Positions 5,327 to 64,000 of a DNA stretch of 64,000 bases are shown here, in pieces (within the stretch, counting starts at the first letter, position 1; each line of letters opens with the position of its first letter). The DNA lies in NCBI GenBank assembly GCA_964106915.2, contig OZ066918.1; one strand, given 5' to 3'. The position numbers and the translations under genes were made by a program. Below the pieces are notes generated by a model. The model saw only the letters and a program-made list of their open reading frames with translations. It made no database searches and was not told the DNA's origin. Source of the stretch: Podarcis gaigeae. Its lineage: Eukaryota.

Positions 5327-5872
5327 ATATGACGGAAATGACTGGCAGAATCCGAGACCAGGGAGAAGAGATGGTGGAAGAAGATTGGAAAAGTTTAAAG
5401 TCTATATATAGAAATACTGTAAAATTAATGAGTGTTAGAAAAATGTTGGAATGAAATTTTATGGCTTTAGTAGAAATGTTATAAGGAGTTAAGCATAAAT
5501 AAGTACTTTAGCATTAATGGAAAATAAGGTTAAAAATATGTTAAGATATTTATATTACAAAAAATAGAGAAAGATGGAAAGGAATTGCTGAAACAATTAA
5601 CAGAAGTGGAATACAAAAAGGGAGGTGAGAGGAGGTTGATGAAACAAGGGAATGAAAGATAGGGCATTGAAATTGTATGATGTATGTTTTTAAACTGTTG
5701 TTGTTTTGTTTTGTTTAGTTTAATGTGTTAAGGTTGCGTTTTGTATTGTTTATATATTGTATTGTATTGTGTTTTTTTCTCTCTTTTGTTTTTTCTTCTG
5801 GTCTTTTTTCTTCTCTTTTTTTCTTGTAAGCTTTAAAAGTAATAAATATTATTATTATTATTATTTAAAAAA
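5327..5872 (+). mobile_element. 5'-truncated L1 LINE (ORF2 end plus 3' UTR)
   Basis: Encodes EMTGRIRDQGEEMVEEDWK, similar to the other L1 C-termini here. Purine tract, T-rich UTR, AATAAA and A tail. 14-bp TSD GATTATTATGCATT at 5313-5326 and 5873-5886. Confidence 0.85.
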
Positions 5873-5937: not shown

Positions 5938-6350
5938 ATGGAAAACGAGCAAGGTCCCAGCTAAAGAAGAGTGGCAACTTCAGTTGACAGAATATGCACA
6001 GCTTGCAGACTTAACGTATAGAATAAGAGAACAAGAAGAACATGTGTTTAGAGAAGATTGGAAAACGTTTATTGAATATATGGGAAATAACTGTGTACAG
6101 GTGAAAAGGCTGGCAGCATTAAAATAAATTTAACAGCGTAAATAAATTATGATGGATGGAATAATGGAATACTGAATGGTATAGTTTATGTAAAATATGC
6201 AGGGATTTATGATATGAAAAATGAACCAAGGAAAGAGAAGAAGGGAAGTCATTGCTATCTTAAGGATGTATAAATGAGTACTTTCATATGTAAAACAGAA
6301 AATTTAATTTGTGTTTCTGTATATATATATATACAGAGAGAGAGAGAGAG
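5938..6350 (+). mobile_element. 5'-truncated L1 LINE (ORF2 C-terminus plus 3' UTR), second subfamily
   Basis: Frame reads WKTSKVPAKEEWQLQLTEYAQLADLTYRIREQEEHVFREDWKTFIEYM...LAALK*, homologous to ORF 59856-60059. Ends in a (TA)n(GA)n tail. Confidence 0.8.
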
Positions 6351-6795: not shown

Positions 6796-7307
6796 ATAAT
6801 AGACCAACAACAAAACAAACAAAAAAACCAGAACAGATACATGTTTATTCTTGCAGATGGGGCAGAAATGCTCCAGCTGATGATAAAGACACAGCTGGAT
6901 AACTCTAGGCAATTCTTAACTGATGAAGTGTAAACATCAATGTTTTCTGTTGATTCTTACAGGCGTTTCTCCCCTCCTGCAGCCATACTCCAGCAGAGCT
7001 TGATGAAAAGCAGCTCCCCACACCTTCCTGACATCTTCCACACTTGCCACCCACCCTCACAGATAAGGAAGGGTATGCTCCAAATGGGTTTTGAAGATGG
7101 ATTGCTACAAGTTCATGAGATGGACCGGAAGAGGAAGGCACGTATTCATCAAAGAGCACAGAGAAACTCAGCTAGTGCAGAATGGAGAGGCTATATTGCT
7201 GATGGGGGCAGATAGCCAAGAGCACGCCACACATCTGCTAAAACGTATGCCCTGGCTGTCCCTATGCCACAGGGCCAGGTTCAAAGCTCTTGTGATTATA
7301 TGCAGTA

Positions 7308-7813
7308 TGTTGTTGTTGTTTAGTCGTTTAGTCGTGTCCGACTCTTCGTGACCCCATGGACCAGAGCACGCCAGGCACTCCTGTCTTCCACTGCCTCCCG
7401 CAGTTTGGTCAAACTCATGCTGGTAGCTTCGAGAACACTATCCAACCATCTCGTCCTCTGTCGTCCCCTTCTCCTTGTGCCCTCCATCTTTCCCAACATC
7501 AGGGTCTTTTCCAGGGAGTCTTCTCTTCTCATGAGGTGGCCAAAGTATTGGAGTCTCAGCTTCAGGATCTGTCCTTCCAGTGAGCACTCAGGGCTGATTT
7601 CCTTAAGAATGGGTAGGTTTGATCTTCTTGCAGCCCATGGGACTCTCAAGAGTCTCCTCCAGCACCATAATTCAAAAGCATCAATTCTTGGCGATCAGCC
7701 TTCTTTATGGTCCAGCTCTCACTTCCATACATCACTACTGGGAAAACCATAGCTTTTCTATACAGACCTTTGTTAGCAGGGTGATGTCTCTACTTTTTAA
7801 GATGCTGTCTAGG
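7308..7813 (-). mobile_element. Bov-B (RTE) LINE, 5'-truncated 3' end
   Basis: ORF 7320-7649 (LKLRLQYFGHLMRREDSLEKTLMLGK...WRALVHGVTKSRTRLND) is the RTE/Bov-B ORF end. (CAA)n tail. TSD ATATGCAGTA at 7298-7307 and 7830-7839. Confidence 0.95.
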
Positions 7814-55964: not shown

Positions 55965-56152
55965 AACTGTTATTTATTTTTATTTGTGTCAATGTTGTTG
56001 ACTGGCTAAAGAATTTATTGCTGTTGATTAATTAACACACTGCCTCTGGTGAACGTCAGACTTTGGGACACTGTTTCTGTTGCATTTGACATCCAGTCTG
56101 GTGGAAAGTTCTAGCAAACTCCAAATGTTGCACATGACTTTGTGACATTCTG

Positions 56153-57837
56153 TTTTGTTTTGTTTTTAAAATAATTTTTATTAAGATTTTCCAAATTAAA
56201 ACAAATTAAATCCAATTTATACACTTCTTCCAATAACCAAGACTTCCCCCTCCCCCCCTCTTGTGTTCCAAATCTTCTAAATAAACAATTAAATTCAACA
56301 AGTTCTTATCCCCAGATTACACTCATCGTCAATAACCCAATTTTTTCAAATTCCCATCCCCTAAGATCTGTCTTCCCTTCCACGAGTTCCCCCCTTTCAG
56401 ATATAGTGCAGATGAAAAGAAAATACAAAAAGAAAAAAGAAAAAATAATTTTACAGCCTTTGGATTCCAAATTTCCCTCCCCTCTTTCCCTGTTGCGTTC
56501 CTTATATCCCTCCAATTCTAATATCTTCCTGGTGTTCCCACATTTCACTAAACCCATATCTCTCTGATTCTTTACCAGTCATTTTTAATCACAAGTGTCC
56601 AATCTTAGAAGGAGTCTATCTCAAAAAGGGGCTCATTTCTTCTATCCAGATTTTTGTATCCAGGAGTAAAAACTCCAATTTTGTTTCCATAAGCTTGTCA
56701 AATCTGGATATCCCAAATGTCCCCACTTCCAGTTCTGTCCAGTTCTTGTTGTTTCCTTATTCTTGTCGGTCACTCTCCTCCTTTTTGTTTCCCTGTTCTC
56801 CCGCAGAAAGGTTCTTTTCCCAAAAGCTTCTAATTCCTCTGCAGAGGCTTGTTATTCAGGAGCAAAACATTACGTCATGTCCCTTTCATTTTCCAACAGA
56901 TAAATCCATTGTTTCTTGTAGTATGTAGACCTCTGTAGACAAAATAATGTCCCATTTCTGCAGTTTCCCAGGAGGTTGAAAGTTCTGTTCAACTGTTCAA
57001 GTTTCCTAGCAAAAACACATGCAATATCCCTCAGCTCCTCTAGATGGATTGCAGTAACTGAGTTCCCTTCCAGATCACATCCACCAGTCCAAATAGGTTG
57101 TTAATCCTTATTTGAAACAATTTGTATCCAATTTATATCCAAATGTAACTGGCAAAGTCCTCAAAACACCGTCTCTATTTTGTTCTTCCGTTTTGACAGC
57201 TCTTTGACAGCTGTCAAAACCTCCATTACTCTTCTCCAGGTATTCTCGCAGATCGCTCCAGGGATTCCGGGGGGGGGGGGTTGCTTTTTAATGCAAATTC
57301 TCCTTTTCTCCTCCAGCTCAAACTTATAATTTTCCCTCGCGAAGTTGTTAGTTCATCAAGATAGGGTTACACTCGATCTTAGTTGTCAAGTCCTATGTTT
57401 TGTCTTTTCTACAATAAAGGGGGGGCTGACTTCCTTTTTCCACCTCCCCCGTTCGCATCAAATTTTAAAAATTTATCCCTCTTTTTAATCCATAGTCCAA
57501 TTACTCACGGGTTTTTCTTTTGGATCCAAATTTTCAATAGAAGAAGCTAGCGCTCTCCACCGAATGGCATGCGGCTTCGCTCGGCAGGGGAAGCGGCGGA
57601 CTCAAAGCACCACCACCCCCCAGGCGCCCGTTCCTTAGCCTTTAAAAAGGCTCTTTCGCGGGCCGGGGAGGGGCGCAAAGGTGCCAGCCGAGTCACCATG
57701 TCCATGGGGCTCCGTGCCCATGGCTTTTGAGGGTCCCCGCGTCGCCGGCGCGGTAGAACCCAACCCCTGCCGAGCCGGCTCCCTCCGGAGCACGGAGGGA
57801 GCCCGCCATTCGGCGATGGCGCCAACCCGGAAGTCCC
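56153..57837 (-). mobile_element. Full-length non-autonomous L1-type retroposon (HAL1-like or ORF-less), 1685 bp
   Basis: 17-bp perfect TSD GACTTTGTGACATTCTG at 56136-56152 and 57838-57854. CpG-rich 5' end starting GGGACTTCCGG. G-rich 3' tract, AATAAA and (AAAAC)n tail. No long ORF. Confidence 0.85.
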
Positions 57838-59029
57838 GACTTTGTGACATTCTGGCTGGTCCTAATCAAGGTGTTATCATGCTGTGGCTTTGGGGGTTGT
57901 TGTAATGGGCCATCAATTTTTATGTGCCTTGTAGTATGTTGTCCTGGGCCATGAAGGAGAGGGAACTTTAATCCAGAAGGAAAATATCTTCTGAAATAAG
58001 AAAACAGTTTAACTTGGGGGACAGGGAATGCATGACACTAACTTACCCAGTTTTAATGTATTTATGTGGGTGAGGGGATGGTTGGTTGCAACTCACTTTG
58101 GGTTTCCTTAGGCAAGAGAAAGTGACTAAAAATTCATTAAATAGCAATATCTTCCCCTTCCCTCTTCTCTCCCTATGTGCCCCACATGCCCCCTAGCCAT
58201 GGAATCTGCTGTGGGGGGATTGGGGGGGACCAGAACCAATTTGGACAACACAGGGAGAAGAGGAAGTTTCCTTGTGCAAGCAGACGTCATTGCAGGAGTG
58301 GAAGAACTTAGCTGAATGCAAGCCCTCCCTCTCCGAGATGACGTGTGCATATCTCATAGCAATCTCCATCATGTTTTTTGTTGTTTTAAATGCGTTTTTG
58401 GCTTTATTCTTAATTGTATTGCTTTTCCCCTTTGGTATTCCTTTGGAAGGAAGGGTGGGATACAAAATATTAATAAATAAGTGGAAGAATCTCAATTAAT
58501 CAGCAGGCAGATTTCCTCTTCCAATGTAACTATTTTCAGTATGCAGGTGGATGGCACTATCTTAGGGTGTTTCCAGGAAGCCTGTTTATTGATTGTTTGT
58601 TCTGATTTGTTTTCAGGGAGGTTAGATGATGCTTGAAAGCAAGTGTCATCCCACACTTTCCAATTTCCTGTCACTTTCCTTATTGCAAAAAGGCTGGCTC
58701 TTTGGAGGGGAGGGTTGTTGCACACGACCTCCCTATGAACTACAATTGTGTGACCTGAATTTGTCCGTATGTGATTGGGTCCCACCTGAAAATACCAGCA
58801 CTCTGGAAGCATCCCTTTGGAGATGAATTCTACTCTCTCCCTCACCATGGATCTTCTGAGAGGCTGTGATGCTTTTATTCATCTATTGTTCACAGGAATA
58901 TTTTCATTTGTTCTGATTTGCAATAGTTAATGAATTATGTTGTTTGTTTTTGATGTTGTGAGCCATTTTGGAATGTAGATCATCCCTGACAAGTGGCATG
59001 ATAGATTCACTTATTTATTAAATCTCATT

Positions 59030-60280
59030 GGATCGTCTAACCCTTAGAATGGGAAATGAAAGATGAGCCTGTGAAATCATATATGATTAATCTGGCAAGG
59101 GGTGTGGGGCACAATATTGAGTCTGCACTATGGGAGAAGCTATGGGAAATGAACCTGAAAAACTGTGTGTTATATATTGAAGTAAAGCCACATGAAAATG
59201 ATCCACAGATGGTATTTAATGCCAAGTAGACTAGCAAAACTGTTTAAAGTTGGGACAGGCAAATGCTTGAAGTGTAAAGAGGTAGAATAATCATTTTACC
59301 ACACGTGGTGGTTGAGTAAAGTAATCAAGGAATTCTGGGAAATGATTCATAACAAATTAAAAATATTTCAGAGAATATTTCACAAGAAACCAGAAGCTTT
59401 TCTTCTGGGAATAGTAACAACATAAGTCCGCAAATGGGTGGGGACACAGGTGGCGCTGTGGGTTAAACCACAGAGCCTAGGACTTGCCGATCAGAAGGTT
59501 GGCGGTTCGAATCCCCGCGATGGGGTGAGCTCCCGTTGCTCTGTCCCAGCTCCTGCCCACCTAGCAGTTCGAAAGTACGTCAAAGTGCAAGTAGATAAAT
59601 AGGTACCGCTCTGGCGGGAAGGTAAACAACATTTCCGTGTGCTGTTCTGGTTCGCCAGAAGCAGATTAGTCATTCTGGCCACATGACCCGGAAGCTGTAC
59701 TCCAGCTCCCTCGGCCAATAAAGCAAGATGAGCACCGCAACCCCAGAGTCGGCCACGACTGGACCTAATGGTCAGGGGTCCCTTTACCTTTAAGTCCCCC
59801 AATATTTTTTAAAATATATATATATATTATGTATGCCACTACAGCAGCCTGAATTTTGCTTGCACAAAAATGGAGAACAGGTGTAGTACTGACCATGAAG
59901 GAATGGCACTTTAAGTTGTTGGAATATGTGGAGCTGGTGGGTCTGACCAGTAAGATAAGAGAACAAGATGATGAAGAATACAAAACGGATTGGAAAATGT
60001 TTGTACAGTATTTTAAAAATCAGTATAAACAAGTGAACAGATTAGCAGGACTTGAATAAATTCAGCAGTATAAGTGGAAGTAGGAGTAGTAAGAAGAGTA
60101 GAACTTGGTAACTTGGAAGAGAGGGAAAAGAAAATATATCAGAGAAGGAGAGGAAGGGAAATCCTTCGGTGTTTTGTGTTGTGTCCTTGGTTTTTCATGG
60201 TTTTGTTTTCATTTTTCTTCATTTATTCTTTACTTTCTTTTTCTTTTTAATTGTATGTAAAAACACATAATAAAAATTAC
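59030..60280 (+). mobile_element. Degenerate L1 ORF2 3' region plus 3' UTR, interrupted by a Sauria SINE
   Basis: KMIHRWYLMPSRLAKLF...KCLKC...YHTWW..K..KEFW is a decayed CCHC domain. It continues as ILLAQKW...DWKMF...LAGLE*. AATAAA lies near 60269. Confidence 0.9.
59436..59790 (+). mobile_element. Sauria SINE (Squam1), full length
   Basis: Homologous to 38192-38547. Imperfect TSD TAAGTCCGCAAAT / TAAGTCCCCCAAT. Confidence 0.95.
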
Positions 60281-61537
60281 TTTCAATTAACCCCACTGAT
60301 TAATTGACAAAGCACTGCAGCTGGAGGAGGAGCTGTCAAAAATGTCAGGGCAGCATTGCAGATGGTTTTATGGCATGGGGAAGCAGAGAAAGCTAAATCA
60401 AAGCTGGCTTGTGAAAGGTAAGTGGTGTTCCATTGAAATATCAGTAGACGTGTGCCAAAGAAAGCAGGCGCCATTGTATCAAAGCACTGCGAGCTGCCTT
60501 TTCCCCTTCCTTCCAAAGAACACCAAGCTCCTGATCCCGCAATATTAAAAACAAACAAACAGCTAGCTCTCTCAGGTACCTTCCTCAGCGCAATCACATA
60601 TTTCACCCTTCCATGTATAATAGCATTTGTTTCGGCTAGCCAATTCATAATGCGCTTTACCTTACAAGAACTCTGTTTTTGTGTGTTCCCATTTCTAACC
60701 ACTCTTCCGGGTATTTGCAAACCCCTCTCTCCTATACCTCTTGAAAGAATTACTTTTCAGAGAATGCAAAGCATGGGGTGGGGAGCCTCTTGTTCTTGGA
60801 AGCAGTGAGAATCAGTTCACTTGAGAAAACATGCTCAGCAGAGAAAAGGGAGCTTGAGAATCCCTGGATTCAGTTCCAGCCAAGCCAGGGCAAAAAGTTC
60901 GATACCACTCATGTGCCAGGTCAACAGCAGGTCGCTTTCATCTCATTAAAGAAAACAGGGTGAATGGGTATTCACTGCAGATCCTTATACAACACTTAAC
61001 ATTTTCCTCACTTTGTGATGGAAGGTTAAGATGCTCCTGTCCTCTCAAGCCTATTACGTATTTGGCTACTGTTGCTTTGATCTGTTTAAAAAGAATACAT
61101 TATATAGCTGGCAGAGGGCAGCAGGATGCTCCCCAGTCCACCAGACCCAGTGCCTTGGAAATGAGCACATGACCCTTCTAAGATGTTGCCATCAGAGTGG
61201 GCAGAGCTAGGGGCAAGAAGGTTGGCATCAGACAGTTGCTAGAGCCAACCCCCAGCATGGTTGCAGCTGACTTGGTGGTAGGGAGGAAGAAAATGCCTCC
61301 TGGCTCATCTAGAAGCTCATCTAGAACAGGGTTCTACTGAACAGCATCAGTTTCAATCCAAATTAGCTCAAAAGAACGATGAATTCCTGTCCTGTTCTCA
61401 GGCTTCCTCTTTTTGCTCACCATCACCTCCATTTCCTATTGTCTATGTAACCTGAAGAGCACGTAAATGATGTATTGATTTCCATTATAAACTTGGCTGA
61501 GCAGACGACCTGCTTAGATTGTCCTCATTGCTTAAAG

Positions 61538-63017: not shown

Positions 63018-63160
63018 CTCATAACAGACCTTGGAGAAGAAGCAGAAAGGAAGTAAGCCTGAGAGGATGTGATCTACTTTACCAACAAGCATACTAAAAG
63101 TGAACGGATCAGTGAGCTGAGCAAAAGGTTGCCTTTCCATCACCCTCTACTGGCTCAGGT

Positions 63161-63652
63161 TGTTGTTGTTGTTTAGTCATTTAGTCATGTCCAACTCTTC
63201 GTGACCCCATGGACCAGAGCACGCCAGGCACTCCTGTCTTCCACTACCTCCCACAGTTTGATCAAACTCATGCTGGTAGCTTCGAGAACACTGTCCTTTT
63301 GTCCTCTGTTGTCCCCTTCTCCTTGTGCCCTCCATCTTTCCCAACATCAGGGTCTTTTCCAGGGAGTCTTCTCTTCTCATGAGGTGGCCAAAGTATTGGA
63401 GTCTCAGCTTCAGGATCTGTCCTTCCAGTGAGCACTCAGGGATGATTTCCTCAAGAATGGATAGGTTTGATCTTCTTGCAGTCCATGGGCCTCTCAAGAG
63501 TCTCCTCCAGCACCATAATTCAAAAGCATCAATTCTTCGGCGATCAGCCTTCTTTATGGTCCAGCTCTCACTTCCATATATCACTACTGGGAAAACCATA
63601 GCTTTAACAGTACAGACCTTTGTTGGCAAGGTGATGTCTCTGCTTTTTAAGA
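63161..63652 (-). mobile_element. Bov-B (RTE) LINE, 5'-truncated 3' end
   Basis: ORF 63177-63629 reads VKAMVFPVVIYGSESWTIKKADRRRIDAFELWCWRRLL. (CAA)n tail. 13-bp TSD TACTGGCTCAGGT at 63148-63160 and 63653-63665. Confidence 0.95.
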
Positions 63653-64000
63653 TACTGGCTCAGGTACCTAAGTGCAAGCATTGTTGCTTTCCTTGCCCCA
63701 CCTAATAGATTTAGTTTTGGACAAGGCAGCAGAGGACAAGTCTTCAGTTATCTTCTCAGCAGCTGTGCAGGGTTAGGTCAAATGCTGTGATGTGGAAGTA
63801 CACATGCAACTGCAAAGGAAAGCCCAAAGGCAAGTGTTCGATATGATAACGCAGGGGTGAGATGCTGGGTGTAGTTCTGAAGATGTCCACCACTATTACT
63901 GCCACCAGAATGGCACACATACACTTGCCTTCTTCCCCCAGGTCTCATGCAGGGGTGCTTGGGAAATTTGAATCCTGTCCATCCCATTGCAAATGGATCT

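Follow-up and report, generated by a model that had tools for sequence, protein, structure and literature searches.

The proteins of LINE-1 (L1), a long interspersed element, prefer the RNA that encodes them, and the half-L1 elements (HAL1) of mammals are reportedly to be credited to Smit (1999) and to Bao and Jurka (2010). Bipartite non-autonomous LINEs are divided by Kojima (2018, PMC5786205) into ORF1-present elements (HeT-A, HAL1, Ag-Sponge) and elements without an open reading frame (ORF-absent); in the excerpts of that paper, the ORF-absent group is given for RTE, Ingi, Vingi and R2 alone, and HAL1 is described as needing to make the ORF1 protein (ORF1p). HAL1 appears as mammalian in passages of four further papers (PMC5753468, PMC13756887, PMC8535693 and PMC4859970), in three of which it codes for ORF1, and the relevant passages of PMC4494074, PMC7245038 and PMC5203782 contain no L1-derived ORF-less case. 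Here we describe an element of 1685 bp at 56153–57837, on the minus strand of a 64,000-nt stretch of Podarcis gaigeae DNA (the window, to which all coordinates refer). Very probably, this element is a recent copy of a multi-copy non-coding family which arose from a lizard L1 by internal deletion and subsequent loss of ORF1, and which is likely transcribed from the L1 promoter and copied in trans.

The element was delimited by its sequence and by its copies in the same genome. It is flanked by an exact 17-bp direct repeat, the target site duplication (TSD), with the 5' copy at 57838–57854 and the 3' copy at 56136–56152, as proposed in the original prediction that had been made from the sequence of the window. 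The same prediction had called for many copies of about 1.7 kb with shared ends, distinct TSDs and no ORF, and a search of the genome with the element bore this out. The 40 matches scored out of 2369 candidates comprised the window copy, 38 near-full-length copies at 97–99% and one match starting from query base 170. TSDs of 13–21 bp, every one different, were present in 27 of 30 fetched copies, the remaining three giving matches of 9–11 bp. The 30 best-scoring copies diverged from their majority sequence by a mean of 0.54% (0.12–0.96), a value that is biased low because the copies were selected for likeness to the window copy. A 22-mer of the ORF-less clade that spans the splice-donor-like site described below has 295 exact matches in the genome (control, 0), and 31 of the first-listed 100, counted by eye, carry the spelling of the window subfamily, which suggests about 90 copies of this subfamily in the genome.

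The proposed recent age of the insertion was supported by read data from four runs, two of them labelled with the best-matching organism (X1 and X2) and two from other species. In all four, one contig joins position 56135 directly to 57838, corresponding to an empty site with one copy of the TSD; the insertion is therefore absent from these other samples, a result obtained at the window locus only. The flanks of X1 and X2 differ from the window at 1 and 6 positions, respectively, and it is not established that they belong to the same species as the assembly. Contigs along the element in run X1 reached 73–95 times the flank depth, alike in the 5' and 3' parts, which is a measure of depth and not of copy number. 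Copies related to the element were also present in the runs of the two other species. At 53 target sites the TSD was mostly preceded by T and A-rich at its start, and many copies carried one to four additional 5' purines, the pattern expected from L1-type insertion of capped RNA. Both TSD length and target sites of the element are L1-like, in agreement with its assignment to the L1-type retroposons. Its A-rich tail (56153–56171), identified by inspection and comparison of copies, is an (AAAAC)n repeat in the window copy as predicted; this is no feature of the family, since T(n)A(n) or simple poly(A) stands at the end of most copies.

The 5' part of the element (57509–57837) is a CpG-rich head which stems from an L1 5' untranslated region (5'UTR) and, judged by its likeness to the parent and its CpG profile, is predicted to hold an internal RNA polymerase II (Pol II) promoter and a first exon. 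Within the first 300 nt of the element, GC content is 64–71% and the ratio of observed to expected CpG (o/e) is 0.85–0.9 compared to 0.27 in the window, and the first 60 nt form the most conserved stretch across 16 ORF-less representatives. The motifs noted earlier were located at the positions given, CCGGAAGT at 57827, CGCCATT at 57804 and ATGGCG at 57816. The terminal motif GACTTCCGG...ATGGCG (57804–57835) resembles the terminus of lizard clade-1 L1s as given by a consensus in the excerpted part of PMC5381506, with a spacer exceeding that of the published consensus. Parent-type L1s are those of the L239/L246 type; L239 is an autonomous L1 with an ORF1 of 360 aa and an ORF2 of 1245 aa containing both an endonuclease (EN) and a reverse transcriptase (RT). 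The window head is 66–68% identical to the heads of parent L1s, and a profile of the parent 5'UTR matches positions 3–484 of the element (E 4e-34). The first 20 autonomous L1 loci, selected as the best PF03372 matches, were rejected as parent; they share only the extreme ends with the element.

The claim that the element lacks a long ORF was confirmed. The longest ATG-initiated ORF on the element strand has 83 aa, and the antisense strand contains stop-to-stop frames of 159 and 130 aa that amount to at most about 53 aa when counted from ATG. No RT or endonuclease motif had been seen in the sequence, and six read-through frames gave no Pfam match below E 0.066. Likewise, a scan of the element against Rfam produced no match near the gathering score. 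The longest sense ATG ORF in the majority sequence of the 30 copies has 82 aa, which, together with the monophyly of the ORF-less representatives described below, upholds the proposal that the unit was non-coding before it moved.

The element belongs to a wider lineage. Its 5' 20-mer has 409 exact matches in the genome (control, 0); the first 30 of these loci comprised 8 of the window subfamily, 11 of other ORF-less subfamilies and 11 that match at the 5' end only, so that 19 were ORF-less, 11 came from ORF-bearing clades and none was an autonomous L1. Forty loci were fetched with the known window-subfamily copies excluded. TSDs were found in 32 of them, mostly flanking 1.6–2.0 kb and in no case a 6-kb L1. 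Thirteen of the 40 fall into clades with one ORF, which is complete in 8 (193–215 aa); in the other 27, which make up the ORF-less clade, no sense ATG ORF reaches 120 aa. The ORF-less subfamilies are 71–85% identical to the window copy, and neither the position nor the size of their longest ORFs is constant. An alignment of the window element with its relatives runs across their ORF with many frameshifts, and a DNA profile of that ORF matches the element at 844–1017 (E 1e-3) and 1107–1278 (E 1.5e-5), reversed controls giving no match. By alignment and profile comparison with the ORF-bearing subfamilies, the region at approximately 56533–57018 is a remnant of ORF1 that is decayed, frameshifted and internally deleted.

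The ORF of these relatives becomes shorter by steps, from 279 aa in L224 to 261 in L223, 239 in L209, 220 in L227, 215 in L074 and 212 in L072. The L224 ORF and the L239 ORF1 share 50% identity (E 7e-79). Judged from the alignment and with domain labels that are our own reading, ORF1 appears to lose along this series its N-terminal extension, the RRM core and part of the C-terminal domain (CTD), always in frame. The parent ORF1 matched a profile of other lizard ORF1s at 99.8%, and that profile in turn matched human ORF1p structures (E 7e-8); with profile A5, no match to human ORF1p was obtained at E 0.1. The relatives' ORF yielded no Pfam match and did not match distant lizard ORF1s directly; the ESM Atlas returned no usable match. 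A profile search with it reached full-length ORF1-type proteins, and the genome holds intermediates. A genome search with Pfam PF02994 (L1 ORF1 RRM) gave no match, nor did it in any control, and is uninformative, lizard ORF1s barely matching Pfam. In pairs of ORF-bearing elements, which share members and were chosen with the ORF state known, 9 of 13 indels in the body were multiples of 3 and none was of 1–2 nt, compared to 11 multiples of 3 among 46 indels in the 5'UTR segment of such pairs and 14 among 53 in ORF-less bodies. As a separate observation, the degenerate ORF (L074, L072, L063 and L209; proteins P0001–P0021) ends in a motif of some ten conserved residues at its C-terminus, which was born at the deletion junction; this motif also occurs in database proteins, though the RNA-binding cores of ORF1 appear lost. 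One database protein, P0013, combines RING and B-box domains with the RRM/CTD half of an L1 ORF1 of the parent type, and could be a real TRIM-ORF1 fusion or an artefact of the gene model.

The lineage was founded by one deletion, which brought ORF1 up against the final ~42 codons of ORF2. In L224, the DNA profile of the parent ORF1 ends and that of the ORF2 end and 3'UTR begins at the same base, position 1777, and in L195 and L210 the sequence past the ORF reads as the ORF2 C-terminus in a different frame. The junction (56525–56534) contains a CCAGG that aligns in all seven family members displayed, in the window copy at ~56530. It is followed by the eroded last ~42 codons of ORF2 (approximately 56440–56527), recognisable solely via intermediate subfamilies, and by an L1-derived 3'UTR (56172–56439) with a polypurine tract (56241–56257) and an AATAAA at 56177–56182. 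The GGGGAGGGGGAAGTC tract lies at 56241, where it had been reported; its likeness to the L1 tracts at about 6240 and 60150 was confirmed as similarity and not as identity. A parent 3' profile matches L081 (9e-7) and L090 (8e-11), which belong to the same clade as the window copy. By these homologies, the element is the tip of a HAL1-like lineage consisting of L1 5'UTR, ORF1, the last ~42 ORF2 codons and L1 3'UTR.

At the end of the head, a donor-like CCC/GTGAGT (57503–57511, with GTGAGT at 57503–57508 as predicted; the slash marks the putative cut) is inherited from the parent L1. It occurs in 16 of 20 parent-type L1 loci, while 16 loci from other L1 families all lack it in this context. An acceptor-like CCATCTAG/ (57040–57047), the other half of this pair inherited from the parent 5'UTR, would complete a 469-nt GT-AG intron in the 5'UTR (57040–57508) that is predicted and retained by the genomic copies. 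The acceptor-like site is found 465–532 nt downstream of the donor in 49 of 54 donor-anchored elements and lies shortly upstream of the ORF start in the L072 and L074 clades, at ~25–30 nt in the nearest coding relatives. Among the 16 ORF-less representatives, near-invariant positions make up 91% at the donor and 82% at the acceptor, while the stretch separating the two sites has 59% and the body 44%, the first two values coming from small, 11-base windows and the comparison being made without a significance test. A spliced copy was not found: a pattern for the spliced junction that would catch 9 of 16 sampled ORF-less representatives gave 3 matches, none related to the family, versus 295 for an unspliced pattern that would catch 10 of 16. 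The arrangement reads as a predicted 5'UTR intron that would be retained in the RNA that gets copied. The strings 'splic' and 'intron' occur nowhere in PMC5381506, which therefore leaves the donor/acceptor-like pair uncovered. Two palindromes, a perfect 16-mer at 57203–57218 and a near-perfect 17-mer at 57637–57653 (minus strand), are among the longest near-invariant runs of the ORF-less clade; the former also occurs in the L072 clade and, nearly, in the L074 clade.

The better conservation, in ORF-less subfamilies, of the donor-like and acceptor-like sites relative to the sequence between them, and the presence in the same genome of ORF-bearing subfamilies with many frames open, would suit a different reading, in which the ORF-less clade needs, besides intact L1s, the HAL1-like subfamilies with an ORF or a short spliced peptide that it encodes itself, being a two-tier parasite or not truly non-coding. 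We regard this as very improbable, as 39 of the 53 indels in ORF-less bodies shift the frame, no frame is conserved, the longest ORFs vary in place and length, and core segments of the RRM and CTD are missing from the degenerate ORFs.

The order of events was reconstructed from two trees of non-overlapping regions, which agree. One was built from the heads (54 sequences, of which 13 are parent L1s; 2 were left out for want of an anchor) and displays a ladder from parent L1 through near-canonical ORF1, the L074 clade and the L072 clade to the ORF-less clade, the latter with a support of 0.77. The same ladder was obtained from the region past the donor, in a tree that holds 25 of 27 sequences and takes as its root L224, the one nearest to the parent; here, all 13 ORF-less tips form one clade (UFBoot 98), which is sister to the L072 clade at 100. 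Among the sampled elements, the ORF was lost once and ahead of the radiation into subfamilies, since the single ORF-less clade is nested in the ladder and went on to yield subfamilies; loss of the ORF thus preceded amplification.

This bears on whether the element could be an ordinary HAL1, copied from an ORF1-coding master and decayed only after insertion. Its architecture matches HAL1, and the ORF-bearing clades account for 13 of the 40 fetched relatives, 8 of them with a complete ORF of 193–215 aa. However, the closed frames are common to 30 copies at ~0.5% divergence, none of the 27 ORF-less clade members has an ORF of the length sought, and the clade is monophyletic with many subfamilies at 71–85% identity to the window copy. 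This rival is largely refuted, and we consider it extremely improbable. Another alternative, very improbable in our view, is an independent composite resembling SVA or Sadhu, in which unrelated sequence came to lie between an L1 promoter and an L1-like tail. In its favour, direct matches of the body to autonomous L1s are lacking for both protein and DNA, and heads can be swapped between subfamilies, as in L085. In contrast, the body is collinear with the ORF1-coding subfamilies and has the junction and the acceptor-like site in common with them, and the tree built without the head yields the same ladder, so that this alternative is refuted by the continuous homology via intermediates. The original prediction had likewise framed the element as an independent 'long SINE' (short interspersed element) with an unfamiliar body, and in this it was not sustained: the head is an L1 5'UTR, the purine-rich body a decayed ORF1 and the 3' part an ORF2 end plus L1 3'UTR, behind a deletion junction in common with ORF1-coding relatives. 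In L085 (G000:C2:20105212-20111412), the head (bases 1–300) is 95–97% like the distant L071 and the body is nearest to the window subfamily; this copy is a chimera with its switch near the donor-like site, which suggests an exchange of promoter modules.

The descent of the element from an L1 took the following course. An ancestral L1 lost most of ORF2 by internal deletion, and ORF1 shrank in frame through the subfamilies before its loss. Transcription by Pol II probably starts from the inherited CpG head, with polyadenylation presumably at the AATAAA. The unspliced RNA would serve as template, capturing in trans from intact L1s ORF2p, in a poly(A)-dependent manner, and probably ORF1p, and target-primed reverse transcription would insert the copy. 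The short length would keep most new copies full-length; therefore, each likely retains the promoter and could act as a new source.

Several observations weigh against this account, beginning with the selection of the 30 copies behind the divergence estimate and the choice of pairs in the indel test. Direct likeness of the window copy to the parent is limited to the 5'UTR; the parent ORF1 and 3'-end profiles reach only E 0.57 and 1.3 on it, and the homologies of ORF1 and of the 3' part therefore rest on the intermediate subfamilies. The 212–215-aa ORFs have no direct match to the lizard ORF1 profile A3. The ratio dN/dS was 0.31–0.76 in coding subfamilies and 0.18 in the parent pair, and as the range of the coding subfamilies overlaps with the non-coding control (0.29–1.74), we set it aside as evidence for selection on the ORF, leaving the indel test alone in support. 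Finally, as regards a candidate helper L1, the best copies of the parent type resemble L246 at the 3' end by 93–99%, and in other L1 families, which include pairs up to 99.2% alike, likeness to the element is confined to the extreme ends.

Further repeats were noted in and beyond the window. At 5330–5860 (plus strand) lies the 5'-truncated ORF2 end and 3'UTR of a subfamily that belongs to the element's lineage and bears ORF1; this segment resembles a plain L1 3' end, and its relatives carry the junction between ORF1 and the ORF2 end. Two ordinary 5'-truncated L1 3' ends occupy 5940–6330 and 59040–60290 (plus strand), the latter with a SINE-like insertion at ~59440–59790. Reverse-transcriptase-like C-terminal fragments at 7303–7752 and 63156–63705 are related to each other (94–97% alike) and putatively of the BovB/RTE type. 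At locus L169 (G000:C9:97322400-97330400), an ORF-less family copy is interrupted at element base ~400–411 by an inserted L1 that has a long ORF2 frame and in which no ORF1 was found, with ~13 overlapping bases at the insertion. The 29.5-Mb contig C32 is strongly enriched for ORF-bearing subfamilies and parent-type L1s, and between 24.6 and 27.4 Mb it contains more than 20 near-identical ORF1 matches in a manner resembling tandem or segmental amplification; as a guess, C32 is possibly a non-recombining sex chromosome.

Compared to known systems, the element is neither an autonomous L1, as intact ORF1 and ORF2 are both absent, nor a Pol III SINE, since its head is an L1 5'UTR and Rfam gave no match to a tRNA, 7SL or 5S head. 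A strict Pol III box pattern had no match window-wide, even in the window's own SINE-like repeats, and is therefore no test. With the lizard clade-1 L1s, as far as described in the excerpts of PMC5381506, the element shares a long CpG-rich 5'UTR and the terminal motif; the parent family here has ORF1 and an ORF2 with EN/RT, whereas the element is without ~4.3 kb including nearly all of ORF2, and its ORF1 is dead. Like SVA and Sadhu, it is a long non-coding retroposon and not a Pol III SINE, SVA being ~2 kb long, Pol II-transcribed and L1-mobilised (passages of PMC4494074). However, SVA is a composite of unrelated parts, and every part of the element comes from one L1 lineage.

The likeness to HAL1 is closer. 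Both are L1 derivatives by internal deletion that keep the L1 5'UTR and 3' end, and the element has no ORF2 (no EN/RT) save for the eroded end of ~42 codons, is multi-copy and moved as a unit. Its ORF-bearing relatives encode ORF1 only. HAL1 encodes ORF1p, which the related subfamilies do and the element does not; here, in a lizard host, an ORF1 that was shortened in frame eventually disappeared, and the clade without it keeps amplifying. Among the papers listed by literature searches, no title or opening of an abstract describes a reptile HAL1 or an ORF-less L1 derivative, although supplementary repeat libraries of genome papers could hold the family. An ORF-less L1-clade bipartite LINE thus looks new, provisionally, as judged against the published descriptions cited here. 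In our judgement the chances are evenly balanced that this is an undescribed ORF-absent L1-clade LINE, that the genome keeps the whole path from an L1 to a Pol II retroposon without coding capacity, along which the promoter head and the 5'UTR donor/acceptor pair were retained, that a HAL1-type lineage can dispense with ORF1p encoded in cis, and that a CpG promoter with a first-exon donor was spread to hundreds of sites. As the copies carry the full CpG head and the donor-like site, and at least one is absent from other samples, they are candidate promoter sources and population markers. A lineage multiplying after the loss of ORF1, with coding intermediates in the same genome, offers a natural series for how long Pol II RNAs capture the L1 machinery.

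The ORF-absent bipartite LINEs (Bov-A, RTESINE, RIME, NARTc, Vingi and R2 derivatives) are, in the excerpts of PMC5786205, non-coding, made of nothing but a LINE's 5' and 3' parts, presumably transcribed by Pol II and mobilised in trans. The element likewise consists of 5' and 3' parts, the extreme 5' end among them, that go back to a single LINE lineage, and derives from a non-coding source; its own transcription is predicted from the CpG head, the AATAAA and the 5' purines. It differs in belonging to the L1 clade, in its length of 1.7 kb and in having become non-coding by gradual decay of ORF1 instead of by one deletion. It was likely spread via the proteins of intact LINE-1s, a route that we did not find reported for LINE-1. 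Taken together, we concluded that the element is a real, recently active non-coding L1 derivative, which by its sequence would work like an ORF-absent bipartite LINE and is of HAL1-like descent.

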